Part shown: piece by piece, positions 32,229 to 44,076 of the stretch
How positions within the stretch are numbered: the stretch's first letter is position 1
Layout of the letters: each line of letters opens with the position of its first letter
Origin: Candidatus Obscuribacter phosphatis
Lineage (GTDB): Bacteria; Cyanobacteriota; Vampirovibrionia; Obscuribacterales; Obscuribacteraceae
Length of the DNA stretch: 64,000 nt
Assembly (NCBI GenBank): GCA_001899315.1
Contig: MOYA01000004.1
Span: forward strand, 54,477 to 118,476
Direction: 5' to 3'
Made by a program: the position numbers and the translations under genes
Notes under the pieces: model-generated
What the model was told of the DNA's origin: nothing
The model's input: only the letters and a program-made list of their open reading frames with translations
Databases searched by the model: none

Positions 32229-32640
32229 CCGAAAATCAAGAAACCAAAAAACAAAATTCTTTTGGTCCAAGGCAAACCAGATTTCATTAAATCTGCTTGA
32301 CAGCGTGCCAGCTATTCAGTAGTCTTGCCTTGAGACATTTGTCTCGTTTTGCAGGAATCACTTACCAAACCTACCAATCCAATCATCTTCATGCTTAAGT
32401 GCTTGATGGTGTGTTCCCTCGGCTGATAATGATAAGGCTCCTAGCTTTTGCTGGATCTATCAAATAGGCAGGCAACACCCCTTTCAACTCATTCAGCATA
32501 GTACCCAGCCTCTCAAAAACTTGAGGCATTGACGATAGCACTTGCACAGTTGTCAATTGCTTCTACCGGAAAAATATTGGGTATGAACTGACTTAGTTGA
32601 AAACAGGCATCTTAAGGTGCAGAATTGCCAGGAGAATGTC

Positions 32641-33849
32641 ATGAACTTAGTCAAGAAACAGCGCGAGAACCGCTATCGACTGGGAGAGCTTTTTCTAGAA
32701 ACTGGTCTAGTGGACGGTTCAGCAATTTCTGAAGGACTTTCGATTTCTAAGAGAACATCCTTTCCCATAGGACGCGTTCTCGTAATGACAGGATGGCTGG
32801 ATGATCATGATGTGAATTGCGCCTTGGAACTGCAAAATCTTCTCAGAGAAGGCACCATAGACAATCGTCTCGCCGCTGACCTGCTCAGATTCTGCCACCT
32901 CAACAAAGTAGACATAAATGAATCCTTCAGACTTAACGGCATTACAAGCTCCGGAGAATCTCCTCAAAGTAGACTAGGCAGGCTTTTCTTTGCTGCCGGA
33001 ATCGTTGATGAGAACCAACTAGCACAAGCTGGTCGAGAAGCTCAGCGGCACGACATGACGCTAGGAAGCGCGCTTCTCATGCTCCGCTTCGTATCTCAAA
33101 AGACACTCGAAGGTGCACTCAATTTACAGGTGATGCTCAGAGATGGCAAAGTCACCTTCCCCGAAGCTCTTGCATTTTGCAAAGAAATGCACGAGCGTCA
33201 AGTTAGCCTCAGAGAGGTACTAGGTGATAACGGCAAACTCGTTCGTTCTAACAGTGCCGCTCCAAGAATCGGAGAGTTCCTAGTTGCTGCGCAGTTAGTT
33301 AAGAATACTGAAGTTCTTACTGCTTGCGAAATCGGCACAGAGGAAGATAACAACATTGGCAGAGTCCTACTAAGCAGAGGACAACTTTCAGAATTGGTTT
33401 TGGAAGCTGCTCTCAAGCTCCAGAATATGATGCAGTCGAGAGTCTTTACATACAGAAGGGCGGTTAAGCTTCTCAGACTCGTCTATAAGCTAGGTGCACC
33501 GCTAGAACAAATAATTGAAGAATCGCAAGCCCTTGATGATGTTTTCAAACTACTAAGAAGAGCCGCAATAGTCCCTGAGAAGATTGTGCGAGATGTTGCC
33601 TGCGAAATTGTTGACTTTGAAGACACCGTCGCCGAAGCCCTCCTCTCAAGGGGATATATCAATCCTATTCATGCTCGCATAGGTCTAGCCTGCTTAGAGC
33701 GCATCAGAAATGGAGAAATATGTGAAGACAAGGCAGCATTTCTCATCTACCACTGCTGCAACAAACCCGGACAAGAAATGGAAATGTTTAGCCGCATTAA
33801 TTGGTCAGAACTTCGCCGCCTGCAGCTCAGACAGGACTTACTAGTATAG
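32641..33849 (+). CDS. protein of three tandem T2SSE_N/MshEN-like modules
   Basis: ORF 32617..33849 trimmed to ATG 32641 (AGGAG SD). Three modules of about 90 aa, each built as 24-aa motif, 5-aa spacer, 24-aa motif (details in findings). Confidence 0.7.
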   Translation: MNLVKKQRENRYRLGELFLETGLVDGSAISEGLSISKRTSFPIGRVLVMTGWLDDHDVNCALELQNLLREGTIDNRLAADLLRFCHLNKVDINESFRLNGITSSGESPQSRLGRLFFAAGIVDENQLAQAGREAQRHDMTLGSALLMLRFVSQKTLEGALNLQVMLRDGKVTFPEALAFCKEMHERQVSLREVLGDNGKLVRSNSAAPRIGEFLVAAQLVKNTEVLTACEIGTEEDNNIGRVLLSRGQLSELVLEAALKLQNMMQSRVFTYRRAVKLLRLVYKLGAPLEQIIEESQALDDVFKLLRRAAIVPEKIVRDVACEIVDFEDTVAEALLSRGYINPIHARIGLACLERIRNGEICEDKAAFLIYHCCNKPGQEMEMFSRINWSELRRLQLRQDLLV

Positions 33850-39059: not shown

Positions 39060-40643
39060 ATGCCCTGGATAACACTAATTGTGATATGCCTGTTTCTCGT
39101 GCTTTGTCTGGGCTTGGTAGCCTTCCGATGGAGCAAAGCGACCGACCCTGAGCCGGTTTCGCACACCGTCAACTCAGGCAAGTACAACTGGGAATCTCCG
39201 ACCTTCGAAGCGTCGGGACCTTTCTTTATCAAACCCTGGCTGCAGCCGGGTGCGAGCGCCGATTACGACTCAGCCGGAGAAGCTCTGGAACTGGTCTTCC
39301 ACACCAGCCAGCGGCCAACCAGCTGTCGGGTCGAGCTCTACAAGTTGCAGGACCCTCTGACAGCAGTGGCCGTCCTCAGACCGGATGGTCAAGCTCTCAA
39401 TCTGCCCTCGGTCGCCAACCAGGTGCAGTTCAGAGTCAAGCTGAGCGGGCTCAACCCCGACACGGTCTATGCCTACCGCATCTTCTTTGGCGTGGACGAG
39501 GTCTTTGCCTCGACTTTCTCGACCAGGAAGGAAAAGGGCGCTCCCTTTCGTGCCATCGTATTCGGTGACATGGGTTCGGGCTCGCCCTGGCAGAAGCAAA
39601 TCGCTCAGCAAATGGCTGTGCCTGATCAGGCTGCAACCGGGCACATTAAGCCGCGTGGTGCCGATCTGATTGTCTCCACCGGAGACGTCGTTTATCACCA
39701 CGGCCGCTTCAACGAGTATCTCAGCCGTTTCTTCCCGGTCTACCAAGACCTGCTCTCACGCTCCATGCTGCTCACTTGCGTGGGCAACCACGATATGGCC
39801 AAATACGATCCAGAGACGCTGATGTCCTTCAGCGACTACCCAGATTTGATGGCTTATTTCGTCCTCTTCAGTCAGCCCCTGAACGGACCGCCGGCTGTTA
39901 CACACAACCTGGGAGAGAACGAGTTGAGCGCCGCCGGCGGTCAGCAAGTAGGGGCCAATCTGCCTCCTATGACCGGCGACATCGATGCACGCAAAGCCCT
40001 GGTGACAGCAGCCGGCGATCGCTACCCGCGCATGGCCAACTTCTCCTACGACTACGGCAGCGCCCACTTCCTCTTCCTCGACGCCAATACCTACATGGAC
40101 TGGAGCGAAGAGAAGTGGCGGGCTTATGTCAGAGAGGATCTGAGAAAGGTGCCGCAAGGTATCTGGAAGGTGGTGATTCTGCATCAGCCGCCTTTCACCT
40201 CAAACGTCAAGCACCAGCGCGAGCAAGGGATGCGATTCCTGGCCGACATCTTCGAAGAAGAAGGCGTCAATCTGGTCTTCTGCGGTCATGCTCACTGCTA
40301 TGAGCGCAGCCGCCCGATCAAGTTCAAGGTGCAAGGAGGAATCAATGCTCAGGCACGCCGTGTGGAAGGCTATGTGCCGGGCAGCGTCACTATGGACTAC
40401 GACTACGACGGCGTAACGGTGAAGAAGCCGAACGGCGTCATCTATATCGTCACCGGTGGTGGTGGCGCCAAGCTGGATAGCATCAACCTGCACAACCAGC
40501 CTGGACAGTGGCAACCATGGACGGCGAAACTGGTTGGAGACCGGCACAGCTTCAGCTTGGTCGACTTCGGTAAGGACGAGATAACAGTCCGTCAGATCGA
40601 CATCAATGGTCTGGAGGTTGATCGCTTCCAGATCTGCCGCTGA
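39060..40643 (+). CDS. calcineurin-like metallophosphoesterase (purple acid phosphatase-like)
   Basis: N-terminal TM/signal anchor. FGDMGSG, TGDVVYHHG, VGNHD, LHQPPF, CGHAHCYERS. Confidence 0.85.
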   Translation: MPWITLIVICLFLVLCLGLVAFRWSKATDPEPVSHTVNSGKYNWESPTFEASGPFFIKPWLQPGASADYDSAGEALELVFHTSQRPTSCRVELYKLQDPLTAVAVLRPDGQALNLPSVANQVQFRVKLSGLNPDTVYAYRIFFGVDEVFASTFSTRKEKGAPFRAIVFGDMGSGSPWQKQIAQQMAVPDQAATGHIKPRGADLIVSTGDVVYHHGRFNEYLSRFFPVYQDLLSRSMLLTCVGNHDMAKYDPETLMSFSDYPDLMAYFVLFSQPLNGPPAVTHNLGENELSAAGGQQVGANLPPMTGDIDARKALVTAAGDRYPRMANFSYDYGSAHFLFLDANTYMDWSEEKWRAYVREDLRKVPQGIWKVVILHQPPFTSNVKHQREQGMRFLADIFEEEGVNLVFCGHAHCYERSRPIKFKVQGGINAQARRVEGYVPGSVTMDYDYDGVTVKKPNGVIYIVTGGGGAKLDSINLHNQPGQWQPWTAKLVGDRHSFSLVDFGKDEITVRQIDINGLEVDRFQICR

Positions 40644-40923: not shown

Positions 40924-42927
40924 ATGCCCCTCCAAGACTCCTTTAGTAAAAAGTCTGATAAACCGGACCAGGCGCAAGTGAAATCGCCGCGCCCGGCTAA
41001 GTGGCCGCGCGTGCCCACACTTGAAGACTTGGAGTTCAGTTTTCAAAGAGCGAAAGACAGCCCTGGTATTCCGGCAGCCATGTCTTGGAAAAGGACAGAG
41101 TCTTCCAGTTTTGTCCTTTCGGTGACTTGGGAGACCGGAGGAAAAGGCGGCGAAGCTACCTGGCTTTTGACAGCGGAAGAAATGGGCGACAACGTGGTGC
41201 TGTGGAGCTTCCGCAGCCGCGATGCAGCGGTTATTCATAAGCTGATGGAAGAAGCCATTCAGGCTCTTGACCCTTCCAATCAGCCGGAAGAAGACGAGAA
41301 CCAGATGTACGGACAGGTTACCGTCAAGCCCGGCACCAAGATAGACCATTACGAGATCGTCGAAGAGATAGGTAGCGGCGGCATGGGGGTCGTTTATCGC
41401 GGCCGCGACGATATGTTCGACCGACCAGTAGCCATCAAAGTTCTGCATTCCAAGCTGCTCAGTGACCCACTCTCCAAGAAACGCTTTGAACAAGAGGGAA
41501 GAGCCACTATCGCCCTCGCTCATCCTAACCTAATTTCGGTCTATCACTATGGTTTCTCGTCGGGCGGCTTGCCCTTTATCGTCATGGAATATGTTGACGG
41601 CAAAGGTCTGGACAAAATGTTAGAGCAGGTAGGCCACTTGGAATTCGCCGAATTTGTCGAGATTTTCTTGCAAGCTTGCGACGCCCTCGGTCATGCGCAC
41701 GAAAGGGGCATCATTCACCGCGACCTCAAGCCCAGTAACCTGATGCTTGTCAATGTCGGCAAGAAAGAAAAACTGGTCAAAATCGTAGACTTCGGCATCT
41801 CAAAAATATTGCCCCATGGGCGCTTTCCTGGACAGGACCTGACCAATGCCGGGGATGTGGTGGGCAGCCCTCTCTACATGAGCCCAGAGCAGTGCAAAGG
41901 ACTTTCTTTAGATGGTCGGTCCGACATTTATTCTCTGGGTTGCCTGATGTACCAGGCTGCTACCGGCTCGCTGCCCTTTCTCGGCGAAAACGCACTACAG
42001 ACTTTGAGTAAGCATATTTGCGATCCGCCACCCAAATTCAAAGATATTGCCCCAGATCTCAAAATTCCGCCAGACCTTGAACGCATAATCTTCAAGACCA
42101 TGGAAAAAGAGCCGGAGAAGCGCTATGAAAGCGTAGCCGAGCTGCACGCCGATCTGGAAGCGATTTTGCCCAAGGGCAAGGGTCTCAGCCTGACCACCAC
42201 TACCCTCTCCAAGGTAGCTTCGACAGCCACAGCCGGTTCTGTGCATATTCTTGTTGAAACGGAAGAATTGCCCAGAGCCACTCTAGAGGCTGCTGTGCAA
42301 ATTCAAAAAATGCTCCGGGAAGGCACGATGACCCTGGCGGAAGCAGCCAGCGCCTTGAATCGCGCCCACGTCAACGGCGGACAAATCGACATCGATACAC
42401 TCGGCAAAACCAGAGAACATGCTTCATCCCTGGTGGTAGACACACCTCTTGAAGCGGTACTGGTAGAAGCAGGTCTAATTTCCAACGCCGTCTGGCGCAC
42501 CCTTTTGCAATTGCAGGCAGCCATGCGCAGCGGTGAGATGAGCAAAGAAGAAGCTGTACAGGAATTCAGAAAAAGACATGCCAAGGTACAGCCGAAAATA
42601 ACCAAACTTGCCGAAGCGGCTAAAGAGAAACCGCAGATGAGCATTCCCACAAGCCCGGTGGAAATGCTGAAACAAGCAGGCATGATTAGCGAAGAAGACC
42701 TGGAAAAAGCTAAAAAAGAGGCTGCCGATAAAGGCACCAAACTGGAGAAAGTATTGGTAGCCATGGGTAAAATCGACACCAAAACAGTGCTGGCCAGCTA
42801 TCAATGCATGACCCTGCTATCAAATAAAAAACTGAAATTAGAACAAGCGATAATAGCGCTCAACTACTGCGCCCGCATGCGTGTTGATTTTTCAGAAGCC
42901 GTACAAGAGTTAGGCTGGGATATTTAA
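40924..42927 (+). CDS. Ser/Thr protein kinase with C-terminal MshEN/T2SSE_N-like modules
   Basis: GSGGMGVVYRG, VAIKVL, HRDLKPSNLM, DFGISK, SPEQ. About 130-aa N-terminal extension; the C-terminal 230 aa are related to the 32641 protein. Confidence 0.9.
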   Translation: MPLQDSFSKKSDKPDQAQVKSPRPAKWPRVPTLEDLEFSFQRAKDSPGIPAAMSWKRTESSSFVLSVTWETGGKGGEATWLLTAEEMGDNVVLWSFRSRDAAVIHKLMEEAIQALDPSNQPEEDENQMYGQVTVKPGTKIDHYEIVEEIGSGGMGVVYRGRDDMFDRPVAIKVLHSKLLSDPLSKKRFEQEGRATIALAHPNLISVYHYGFSSGGLPFIVMEYVDGKGLDKMLEQVGHLEFAEFVEIFLQACDALGHAHERGIIHRDLKPSNLMLVNVGKKEKLVKIVDFGISKILPHGRFPGQDLTNAGDVVGSPLYMSPEQCKGLSLDGRSDIYSLGCLMYQAATGSLPFLGENALQTLSKHICDPPPKFKDIAPDLKIPPDLERIIFKTMEKEPEKRYESVAELHADLEAILPKGKGLSLTTTTLSKVASTATAGSVHILVETEELPRATLEAAVQIQKMLREGTMTLAEAASALNRAHVNGGQIDIDTLGKTREHASSLVVDTPLEAVLVEAGLISNAVWRTLLQLQAAMRSGEMSKEEAVQEFRKRHAKVQPKITKLAEAAKEKPQMSIPTSPVEMLKQAGMISEEDLEKAKKEAADKGTKLEKVLVAMGKIDTKTVLASYQCMTLLSNKKLKLEQAIIALNYCARMRVDFSEAVQELGWDI

Positions 42928-42930
42928 AGT

Positions 42931-44076
42931 TTGACCATTGAGAAGCCCGGGCTTGACACTATATGCGGTGCATTTTTCCACAAGCCCGACTTAAATCAAT
43001 TAGCAATCAAAACTGTCAAAGAAGGCGAACGCTATCTTGTCCAAGATTTAGCTGAAAACACGTTCTTTATGCTCGGTTGCGAAGAAACAAGCCGCAGTAA
43101 AACGGCTCTAGAACAAGAGCGGCAACTTTTGCTCATTATCAATAAAATAAGTTGTGAAAGACAAGAAGAACTAGCCTTGCCTCTTTTGCAGCTAAGCAAA
43201 GATCAAAAGCCCTGGTTTCAAGGCAAAGACAGACTATGGACTCTGCGCCGCTATGTTCCAGGAATTTCTTTTGATTGGCGCGGCCTATCTGCAAATCTGC
43301 CTGAAACAGAGTCTGAAGAAAAGCAAAATCGGCTCAGCTGTCTGCAATATCAGAGCTTCTGTCAAAGAGCCGGAGAAGAGCTGGCCCGGCTGCATAACCT
43401 CTCATTCATTGGTGAAAGCCAGGCTCTAGATCAAAGACTAGATCTCAGCCTAACGGTCGACTATCGCCAGGCTTGCCTGACTAGGCTAAGGGCGCAGGCA
43501 GAAAAGACTTCTATCAGCCTGGGAGAACTTGAGGCTATCCTTGAGCCTCTCATAGATGCAGCAGTGGCAAAGCAAGAGAGACTGAGTAGAGAAAAGAAAC
43601 TACCGGCGGTATTGATTCATGGAGATTTTCACCCGGGCAATTTCAGACTGACAGAACAAGGTGCCGCTGGAATCATCGATTGGGACTTTAGTCGCTTCGA
43701 TAGCCCGCTCTTTGATTTGCTCTATTCACTCTTTATGTTTGGCGGTTCTTTCCGTCAAGGAAAGACAACTGCTAGCTTGTTGGACCAAACCAAGAGTGAA
43801 GCTTTTCTCGCCGGCTATTTTGCAGCTATCAATGCCGACCTGAAGCAAACTTACCAGCAAAGCCAAATTGATGATGAAAGAGCCTTAGCAGTTTTAGCAC
43901 TGACATTGATTTTGATTTTTGAATTGGACTTTGAAAGCAAGTTCAATGGCAGCGCCAAAAAATCTCAGTTAGAGCAAGTTAAAAGCAATCAGGAAGGTCT
44001 AATAAAAAACTTGCAAATGCTGGCTCTAGAGCAGGAAGCAGGCAAGAGCCTTATCCACGTTTGCGGTTTTTCTTAG
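42931..44076 (+). CDS. APH/choline-kinase-family phosphotransferase
   Basis: VLIHGDFHPGNF and GIIDWDFSRFDSP (Brenner and DxD motifs). TTG start 3 nt after the kinase stop. Confidence 0.75.
   Translation: MTIEKPGLDTICGAFFHKPDLNQLAIKTVKEGERYLVQDLAENTFFMLGCEETSRSKTALEQERQLLLIINKISCERQEELALPLLQLSKDQKPWFQGKDRLWTLRRYVPGISFDWRGLSANLPETESEEKQNRLSCLQYQSFCQRAGEELARLHNLSFIGESQALDQRLDLSLTVDYRQACLTRLRAQAEKTSISLGELEAILEPLIDAAVAKQERLSREKKLPAVLIHGDFHPGNFRLTEQGAAGIIDWDFSRFDSPLFDLLYSLFMFGGSFRQGKTTASLLDQTKSEAFLAGYFAAINADLKQTYQQSQIDDERALAVLALTLILIFELDFESKFNGSAKKSQLEQVKSNQEGLIKNLQMLALEQEAGKSLIHVCGFS

Follow-up and report, generated by a model that had tools for sequence, protein, structure and literature searches.

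In the 64,000-nucleotide window that we analyzed (Candidatus Obscuribacter phosphatis, an uncultured relative of the cyanobacteria that is not photosynthetic; NCBI GenBank assembly GCA_001899315.1, contig MOYA01000004.1, positions 54,477 to 118,476 of the forward strand), one open reading frame (ORF) of 667 amino acids (aa) joins a Hanks-type Ser/Thr kinase domain to a C-terminal tail made of three MshEN_N-like units. From what was observed of this tail (its homology and architecture, the residues it has lost, how it is conserved and in which taxa it occurs), we see an even chance that the protein is a Hanks kinase whose decayed MshEN_N tail would be non-canonical toward cyclic di-GMP (c-di-GMP) and would have a docking or regulatory role. 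The gene is laid out as follows, the last three rows giving matches to a profile hidden Markov model (HMM) of the module family.

40924..42927, + strand: whole kinase gene, 667-aa ORF with N-terminal domain (N-domain), kinase domain and MshEN_N-like tail
40987..41277, + strand: N-domain, residues 22-118; unnamed lineage-specific family
41350..42129, + strand: Hanks-type protein kinase domain, residues 143-402 (Pkinase PF00069, 156 bits, E 1.6e-45)
42235..42387, + strand: half-module 1, residues 438-488 (family HMM positions 34-81, E 3e-07)
42436..42579, + strand: half-module 2, residues 505-552 (family HMM positions 27-73, E 4e-06)
42652..42918, + strand: full module, residues 577-665 (family HMM positions 3-85, E 1e-24)

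The initial annotation, which covered 42241-42927 (residues 440-667 plus the stop codon, position 42241 being codon 440), had described two partial units and a full module in the tail and had placed them in the same MshEN-like family as the modules of a stand-alone 410-aa protein encoded 8 kb upstream. This layout was borne out by an HMM for which only the 410-aa protein's three modules were used; run over all 11,646 of the genome's ORFs, it matched the tail at residues 441-488 (HMM positions 34-81, E 4e-5), 506-554 (HMM positions 29-77, E 0.011) and 580-662 (HMM positions 5-87, E 4e-5). A family profile of 86 positions (a core of 53 residues and the two trailing helices), obtained after three iterations on the genome's own paralogues, recovered the same three units with the E-values listed above, and these matches are far beyond chance. 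The consensus of the profile, VRLGELLVKAGLISEEDLEEALELALKTGLPLGRVLVESGLISEELLEAALRLQSLIRDGKLSLEQAVKALKLVRRRGVSLEEALE, includes the trailing "LIRDG" helix. As had been suspected from the letters, this helix is shared, and it is present in all three kinase units as KMLREG, AAMRSG and TLLSNK. The NCBIfam model NF053729 ("c-di-GMP_motif, MshE-related", 53 positions) scored kinase residues 580-623 at 33.5 bits (E 2.7e-8) and, in a whole-genome scan, at 34.6 bits, below its cut-off of 38 bits in both cases. A Pfam scan of the tail gave nothing credible; the GAT, PCRF and GvpG matches (E 0.02-0.07) were dismissed as noise from helical, charged sequence.

The three units differ in how much of the module they hold. 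Half-module 1 consists of one 24-residue motif in a strongly decayed state, GSVHILVETEELPRATLEAAVQIQ, and the trailing helices behind it, KMLREGTMTLAEAASAL. It is off the relaxed motif of Wang et al. at five positions and aligns with the intact "ILIGHFLIEAGLI...LQLQ" of kinase-free paralogues. Half-module 2 likewise has one motif, PLEAVLVEAGLISNAVWRTLLQLQ, and a trailing helix, AAMRSGEMSKEEAVQEF; its sole miss against the relaxed motif is Gly3 to Glu, and it keeps L2, G10, L21 and Q24. Only in the full module do two motifs stand in tandem with a five-residue spacer (motifs 577-600 and 606-629, spacer 601-605), followed by two trailing helices. The spacing from unit 1 to unit 2 falls ∼28 residues short of a full period, which is one motif plus spacer; the half-modules have therefore lost motif 1 rather than merely diverged.

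To relate the family to known structures, we used an alignment of 57 modules, termed A2, with the kinase full module as its first row, both as a profile and as input for AlphaFold2 (AF2). Against the PDB, the profile matched MshE (5HTL) residues 8-61, i.e., the c-di-GMP-binding MshEN_N unit, with E 5e-11, Thermus thermophilus PilF (6f8l) in four stretches with E 6.9e-26, and PilB with E 1.5e-8. The modules of the kinase tail and of the 410-aa protein are thus one family, MshEN_N, in agreement with the initial annotation, which had named unrelated folds in the two proteins as the result that would speak against their kinship; folds and sequences both turned out to be related. Positions 55-86 of the A2 profile, which hold the two trailing helices, had no natural match in this search, and we therefore regard these helices as a lineage-specific extension. 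The AF2 model of the kinase full module has six helices with a predicted local distance difference test (pLDDT) score of 95.7. In Foldseek, it superimposed on 5htl_B with a probability of 0.92 and a root-mean-square deviation (rmsd) of 2.4 Å over 57 columns, and on PilF's GSPII-B domain with an rmsd of 1.1-1.8 Å over 41-51 columns; the E-values for the single module exceed 1, as is common with such small helical units. The top-ranked Foldseek rows were designed helical repeats with rmsd >8 Å. The family assignment rests on the sequence-profile match, with the superposition as support only.

In both MshE and PilF, guanine O6/N7 is held through backbone amides, those of Gly3 and of the residue after it. 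Gln24 binds the ribose-phosphate, Leu2, Leu17 and Leu21 form stacking clusters, and motif position 1 can be occupied by R, K, L or P (PMC5013675, PMC11731258). The relaxed motif of Wang et al. (2016) asks for h-G at positions 2-3 and for L17, L21 and Q24. In the kinase, the motif of half-module 1 reads G-S-V at its start, then E10, L17, V21 and Q24, and that of half-module 2 reads P-L-E, G10, W17, L21 and Q24. The full module has S-P-V, G10, L17, K21 and A24 in motif 1 and K-L-E, G10, V17, Y21 and M24 in motif 2. None of the four motif copies thus retains Gly3 (the residues there are V, E, V and E), and the full module lacks L21 and Q24 in both of its motifs. The relaxed motif had no match in the kinase or in seven further orthologue or relative sequences and two matches in the 410-aa protein. 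As a regular expression it is harsh even for good family members, and hence we counted residues per position by module class. Modules 1-3 of four-module paralogues keep Gly3 in 31 of 34 first motifs and 30 of 34 second motifs, with Gln24 of motif 2 kept in 31/34. Among terminal modules, Gly3 is kept in 1/12 (motif 1) and 4/12 (motif 2), and Gln24 of motif 2 in 0/12. Class profiles that left out the kinase and its two nearest paralogues gave the kinase full module 81.9 bits for the terminal class (class 4) and 58.0, 41.3 and 41.2 bits for classes 1-3. KLEKVLL and a final ELGW are features of the class 4 consensus and of the kinase alike, and by this comparison the full module belongs to the decayed terminal-module type.

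Terminal modules of arrays, although decayed, carry a signature of their own (KLEK..., ...ALxYC..., and a C-terminal ELGW), which suggests that the terminal module has a function of its own. Examples of four-module arrays in the same genome are C3:226772-228010, C2:565953-567605 and C1:1523286-1524584.

Since Gly3 is lost in 4/4 copies and the full module is of the decayed terminal type, a canonical c-di-GMP site is unlikely, and we infer that the kinase tail lacks one. Similar losses have been studied elsewhere: Wang et al. blame the absence of binding in XpsE on changes including G11V, G40L and Q61V (PMC5013675), the PilF GSPII-A domain, in which one motif is good and the other degenerate, fails to bind c-di-GMP, and the double change Q190E and Q218E abolishes binding by PilF GSPII-B (PMC11731258). 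The initial annotation had taken the fusion to mean that kinase signaling is coupled to the ligand or partner that this domain recognizes. Its premise stands insofar as the tail is of the MshEN_N family. The ligand half of the proposal sits poorly with a tail that has no intact module of ligand-binding type (motif 1 lost twice, Gly3 lost four times out of four), and a partner protein is a better candidate for the coupling than c-di-GMP bound in the known mode.

The mechanism that we propose would run as follows. A kinase domain sits between two lineage-specific pieces, the N-domain and the tail, that also occur together without a kinase. The tail would be a cut-down MshEN_N array, in which two modules are without their first motif and the third is the family's terminal module. 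With every motif copy lacking Gly3, and the terminal module also lacking the Gln that holds the ribose-phosphate, the tail would no longer bind c-di-GMP canonically. It may act in docking, oligomerization or autoregulation, positioning the kinase in the organism's large MshEN_N network or gating it there, and its pairing partners might be ligand-competent paralogues or the N-domain of the kinase itself. Conservation of the tail across 21 orthologues, highest in the motif at 505-531, points to functional constraint and counts in favor of this reading.

Several observations weigh against this reading. The relaxed motif is strict, with only 26 motif copies passing across the 33 family ORFs of the genome, and failure to match it is by itself weak evidence. 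The consensus from PilF is also more tolerant than first thought, position 1 being K, L or P (PMC11731258). The Gly3 contact is made by a backbone amide, which Glu has as well. A divergent kinase of the same architecture, P0170, retains L-G in both half-modules (ELG and SLG). The 5.5-Mb genome encodes ∼20 strong GGDEF domains and two EAL domains, and a genome scan for PilZ domains found none, which makes MshEN_N-type modules the obvious c-di-GMP receptors. Finally, among the 21 orthologues, no stretch of the protein is better conserved than the motif at residues 505-531 (VDTPLEAVLVEAGLISNAVWRTLLQLQ), in which 18 of 27 columns do not vary and mean column identity is 0.977. This counts as a point against a purely structural tail: half-module 2 misses the relaxed motif only once, and such near-invariance is expected of a site for a ligand or partner, possibly a nucleotide. 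We infer that something specific binds at this motif: this may be the surface of a protein, a different region of the kinase or, at a half-site, a nucleotide. Owing to the conservation of this motif, two ligand-based alternatives were therefore kept alive.

According to the first of these, the tail would still be a c-di-GMP sensor, at least one unit of which binds the nucleotide and switches the kinase, for instance by relieving autoinhibition. We consider this unlikely. Membership of the MshEN_N family, the cyclase-rich and PilZ-free genome, and the nearly invariant half-module 2 with its retained L2, G10, L21 and Q24 are all consistent with it, as is the inclusion of Pkinase-MshEN fusions by Wang et al. 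among proteins likely to be regulated by c-di-GMP (PMC5013675). Several arrays adjoin GGDEF genes, and at locus L047 and in the own genome a kinase-free gene with the same tail lies upstream of a Hpt-REC-GGDEF gene. However, the tail is without an intact two-motif module of the binding class, Gly3 is gone from every copy, and the only full module has lost Gln24, L21 and position 1 and belongs to a class that is degenerate family-wide. Comparable changes occur in XpsE and PilF GSPII-A, which are experimentally non-binding.

The second alternative makes the PLE motif at 505-531 a half-site, with two kinases, or a kinase and a paralogue, clamping one dinucleotide between them; this would lead to dimerization and trans-autophosphorylation, and the Gly-to-Glu change may favor a dinucleotide containing adenine. 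Each 24-residue motif of MshE binds one guanine alike (PMC5013675), isolated single motifs with trailing helices are found in the kinase and in kinase-free paralogues, and the motif in question is the stretch that varies least in the protein. The genome also encodes a c-di-AMP synthase with a DAC domain. In MshE, guanine specificity comes from amide donors to O6/N7, and a carboxylate could conceivably accept from adenine N6. Nevertheless, the proposal is inferential throughout, with no intermolecular MshEN half-site known, and with a Glu side chain beside the phosphates the site may simply be blocked. An intramolecular pair is unlikely, given how badly half-module 1 has decayed. We accordingly judge the half-site improbable, and we hold out a comparably slim prospect that the single motif TPLEAVLVEAGLISNAVWRTLLQLQ, which is invariant, is one re-tooled half of a site for a cyclic dinucleotide; the site would form between molecules and drive both dimerization and activation of the kinase, and the Gly-to-Glu change may shift the base preference. 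If true, the half-site would be a new wiring of a second messenger to Ser/Thr phosphorylation and would give the family's isolated half-modules a function.

The decayed, docking tail that we favor can be compared with kinase-free relatives. Two proteins of the same genome, C1:2244092-2246059 (655 aa) and C1:2249753-2251348 (531 aa), consist of the N-domain, a Pro/Gly/Tyr-rich linker and the same tail. These kinase-free tails keep h-G in both half-modules (ILIG and PLG), where the kinase has SV and LE. In a search of 201 sampled genomes of the class, the tail was found only in its own family (44/47 genomes) and in one sister family (2/2). The kinase form, recognized as 660-730-aa frames with ≥269 bits, is confined to three genera, and the kinase-free form is found in many more. 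When the tail profile was run against 1.84 billion representative proteins, 999 clusters were matched; among the best 150 clusters, those long enough for a kinase were checked, and three kinases were found (P0013, P0083 and P0170). Within the own genome, the protein encoded at 40924..42927 is the only one of ∼93 Pkinase ORFs to carry the module. The simplest history would be that a protein with N-domain, linker and tail acquired a kinase domain and that the contact glycines were then lost in the branch that includes this kinase. V-E is already present in the branch of P0033 and P0083, and L-G is kept in P0170.

A kinase-free gene with the same tail lies directly upstream of a Hpt-REC-GGDEF gene on the metagenome contig L047 (6001-7527 and 7613-9679), and therefore the wider family is tied to c-di-GMP. 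In the own genome, the kinase-free C1:2249753-2251348 is close to a GGDEF match at C1:2252928-2253398.

The kinase domain itself looks catalytically competent, as its glycine loop (GSGGMG), VAIK, HRDLKPSN, DFG and SPE motifs are all readable in the sequence, and its Pfam score lies well above the PF00069 cut-off of 31.7 bits. Across the 21 orthologues (650-687 aa, source names Candidatus Obscuribacter sp.), 133 of its 260 columns are invariant, with a mean column identity of 0.882. When the 667 residues were read by eye, no hydrophobic membrane span was noticed, and we propose that the product is a soluble, cytoplasmic Ser/Thr kinase. The AF2 model of the full-length protein has a predicted template modeling score (pTM) of 0.45 and is too weak for reading inter-domain contacts.

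The N-domain is predicted to consist of a helix, four strands and a helix, and AF2 confidence for it is low (pLDDT 30-40). It had no Pfam match, and the best hit in a PDB profile search had E 0.44. A profile derived from the orthologues matched nine further ORFs of the own genome (E 2e-13 to 0.02), which include the two kinase-free proteins that share the tail as well as proteins that combine DUF4388 with a degenerate GGDEF domain. P31, W80 and D100 are its invariant residues. Carriers in the own genome are C5:38431-39459, C3:697844-699514, C1:588767-590302, C3:114049-115665, C1:917963-919567, C1:2277701-2279308 and C1:1958102-1959715.

Modules of this family are abundant in the genome, with 86 NF053729 matches and 33 ORFs carrying ∼90 modules by the family profile; ORF lengths suggest that stand-alone arrays of 350-450 aa make up ∼17 of the 33. 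The maximum seen by Wang et al. (2016) was 22 MshEN genes, in Myxococcus xanthus (PMC5013675), a number that the 33 module ORFs exceed. The ∼93 ORFs for Hanks-type kinases in 5.5 Mb are a very high density for a bacterium. Adjacency of kinases and arrays was dropped as a signal: ∼3 kinase genes were seen by eye within a few kb of arrays, and ∼5-6 pairs within 5 kb are expected by chance. At C3:361423-361710, a partial GGDEF match (40.9 bits) falls in a 716-aa open frame just upstream of the four-module array C3:361791-362996. This frame is next to, or possibly continuous with, the array and may represent a GGDEF-array fusion or a mis-called start. Some arrays run, by eye, into long acidic or low-complexity regions and TPR-like C-termini (C2:220475-223807, C2:624383-626707, C3:519529-521997 and C3:739521-741614), and TPR Pfam domains are present in P0070, a homologue of the 410-aa protein.

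Three further genes in the window bear on the surroundings of the kinase.

32617..33849, + strand: stand-alone MshEN_N array, 410 aa (NF053729 76.4 bits in three stretches; the source start at 32641 gives 402 aa)
39060..40643, + strand: metallophosphoesterase gene (PF00149, E 1.9e-12), upstream of the kinase with a 280-nt gap
42931..44076, + strand: APH/EcKL-type small-molecule-kinase-like gene (PF01636 APH, E 6.9e-20)

By the family profile, the array has modules at residues 21-104, 119-202 and 217-300 and a weak one at 312-382, i.e., three intact modules and one decayed terminal module; a FumaraseC_C Pfam match on this protein was dismissed as spurious. The initial annotation had linked it functionally to the kinase. 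We find a dedicated pairing of the kinase tail with this array very improbable. The two proteins share a module family, in several relatives the two genes share a contig, and in the close relative L033 the pairing is kept, with the array orthologue ∼5.7 kb upstream of the kinase. On the other hand, with 33 module ORFs in the genome, ∼17 of them similar stand-alone arrays, the chance of finding one within 8 kb on either side of a given gene is ∼9%, and the tail profile matches the 410-aa protein among its weaker hits (E 1.5e-12, other arrays reaching 1e-36 to 1e-39). Unrelated genes lie between the two, one of them (SerRS) on the opposite strand, and no array neighbor was found around the most distant kinase orthologue, L031. 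The tail and the array are thus of a common family and not a proven pair.

A more constant neighbor of the kinase than the array is the APH-like gene, which starts 4 nt past the kinase stop codon and is probably co-transcribed with it. It lies directly downstream of the kinase orthologue at 9/9 loci from two genera (29-61% identity); it is not found there in L031, L033 or L043, and it is missing beside more distant orthologues. The metallophosphoesterase gene is found upstream of the kinase in L033 too.

A literature search for Obscuribacter together with c-di-GMP found nothing, nor did we find in the literature a Pkinase-MshEN protein studied at the bench. As a kind, the fusion of Pkinase and an MshEN-type domain in one polypeptide, as in the kinase at 40924..42927, is already known, since Wang et al. 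(2016) reported MshEN fused to Ser/Thr kinases (PMC5013675). Their Supplementary Table 4 lists Stigmatella aurantiaca PKN11 (STAUR_4477) as Pkinase - MshEN - UNK - REC (PMC5013675). Compared by layout, PKN11 likewise has a Hanks kinase followed by an MshEN-type domain and is the published precedent for the fusion, but it comes from the Myxococcales, has a full MshEN domain and a terminal receiver, and is without the Obscuribacter N-domain, half-modules and trailing-helix extension. New here are the layout (N-domain, kinase, two half-modules and terminal module), the extension by trailing helices, the confinement to one lineage and the contrast with ligand-competent kinase-free paralogues. Myxococcus xanthus Pkn1, a Ser/Thr kinase with a PilZ domain that is without c-di-GMP motifs (PMC8844925), similarly combines a Hanks kinase with a decayed c-di-GMP receptor domain; that domain is a PilZ β-barrel rather than an MshEN_N helical bundle, and the organism is of another phylum.

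At the level of the module, Vibrio cholerae MshE (5HTL; Wang et al. 2016, PMC5013675) shares the four-helix unit with two 24-residue motifs five residues apart. Relative to MshE, the kinase copies are without Arg1 and Gly3, and the full module is also without Leu21 and Gln24. The kinase units add two trailing helices, two of the three have a single motif, and there is neither an MshEN_C subdomain nor an ATPase. PilF GSPII-A (PMC11731258) and Xanthomonas XpsE (PMC5013675) are of the same fold family, with degenerate key positions and experimentally no binding, and the XpsE changes G11V and G40L resemble the Gly3 to V/E changes of the kinase; these domains stand at the N-terminus of pilus or secretion ATPases, not on a protein kinase.

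The link between c-di-GMP and Hanks kinases in bacteria rests mostly on domain-architecture lists, and the kinase described here is a clean, conserved case from the Obscuribacteraceae. It also serves as a warning for annotation that membership of a receptor-domain family is not the same as ligand binding. The closest comparison is with the kinase-free proteins of the Obscuribacteraceae (P0034, P0035 and P0036; C1:2244092-2246059 and C1:2249753-2251348), which have the same N-domain, tail layout and terminal module ("EQAIIALNYCxRxRV...ELGW") and differ in the h-G of their half-modules (ILIG and PLG, against SV and LE in the kinase) and in being found in more genera. In the kinase, scaffold and terminal module were retained and the contact residues lost, while its kinase-free paralogues still have those residues. 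Comparison of both forms should speak to the role of the non-binding parts of these arrays and to whether the kinase reads c-di-GMP directly, via its paralogues, or not at all.

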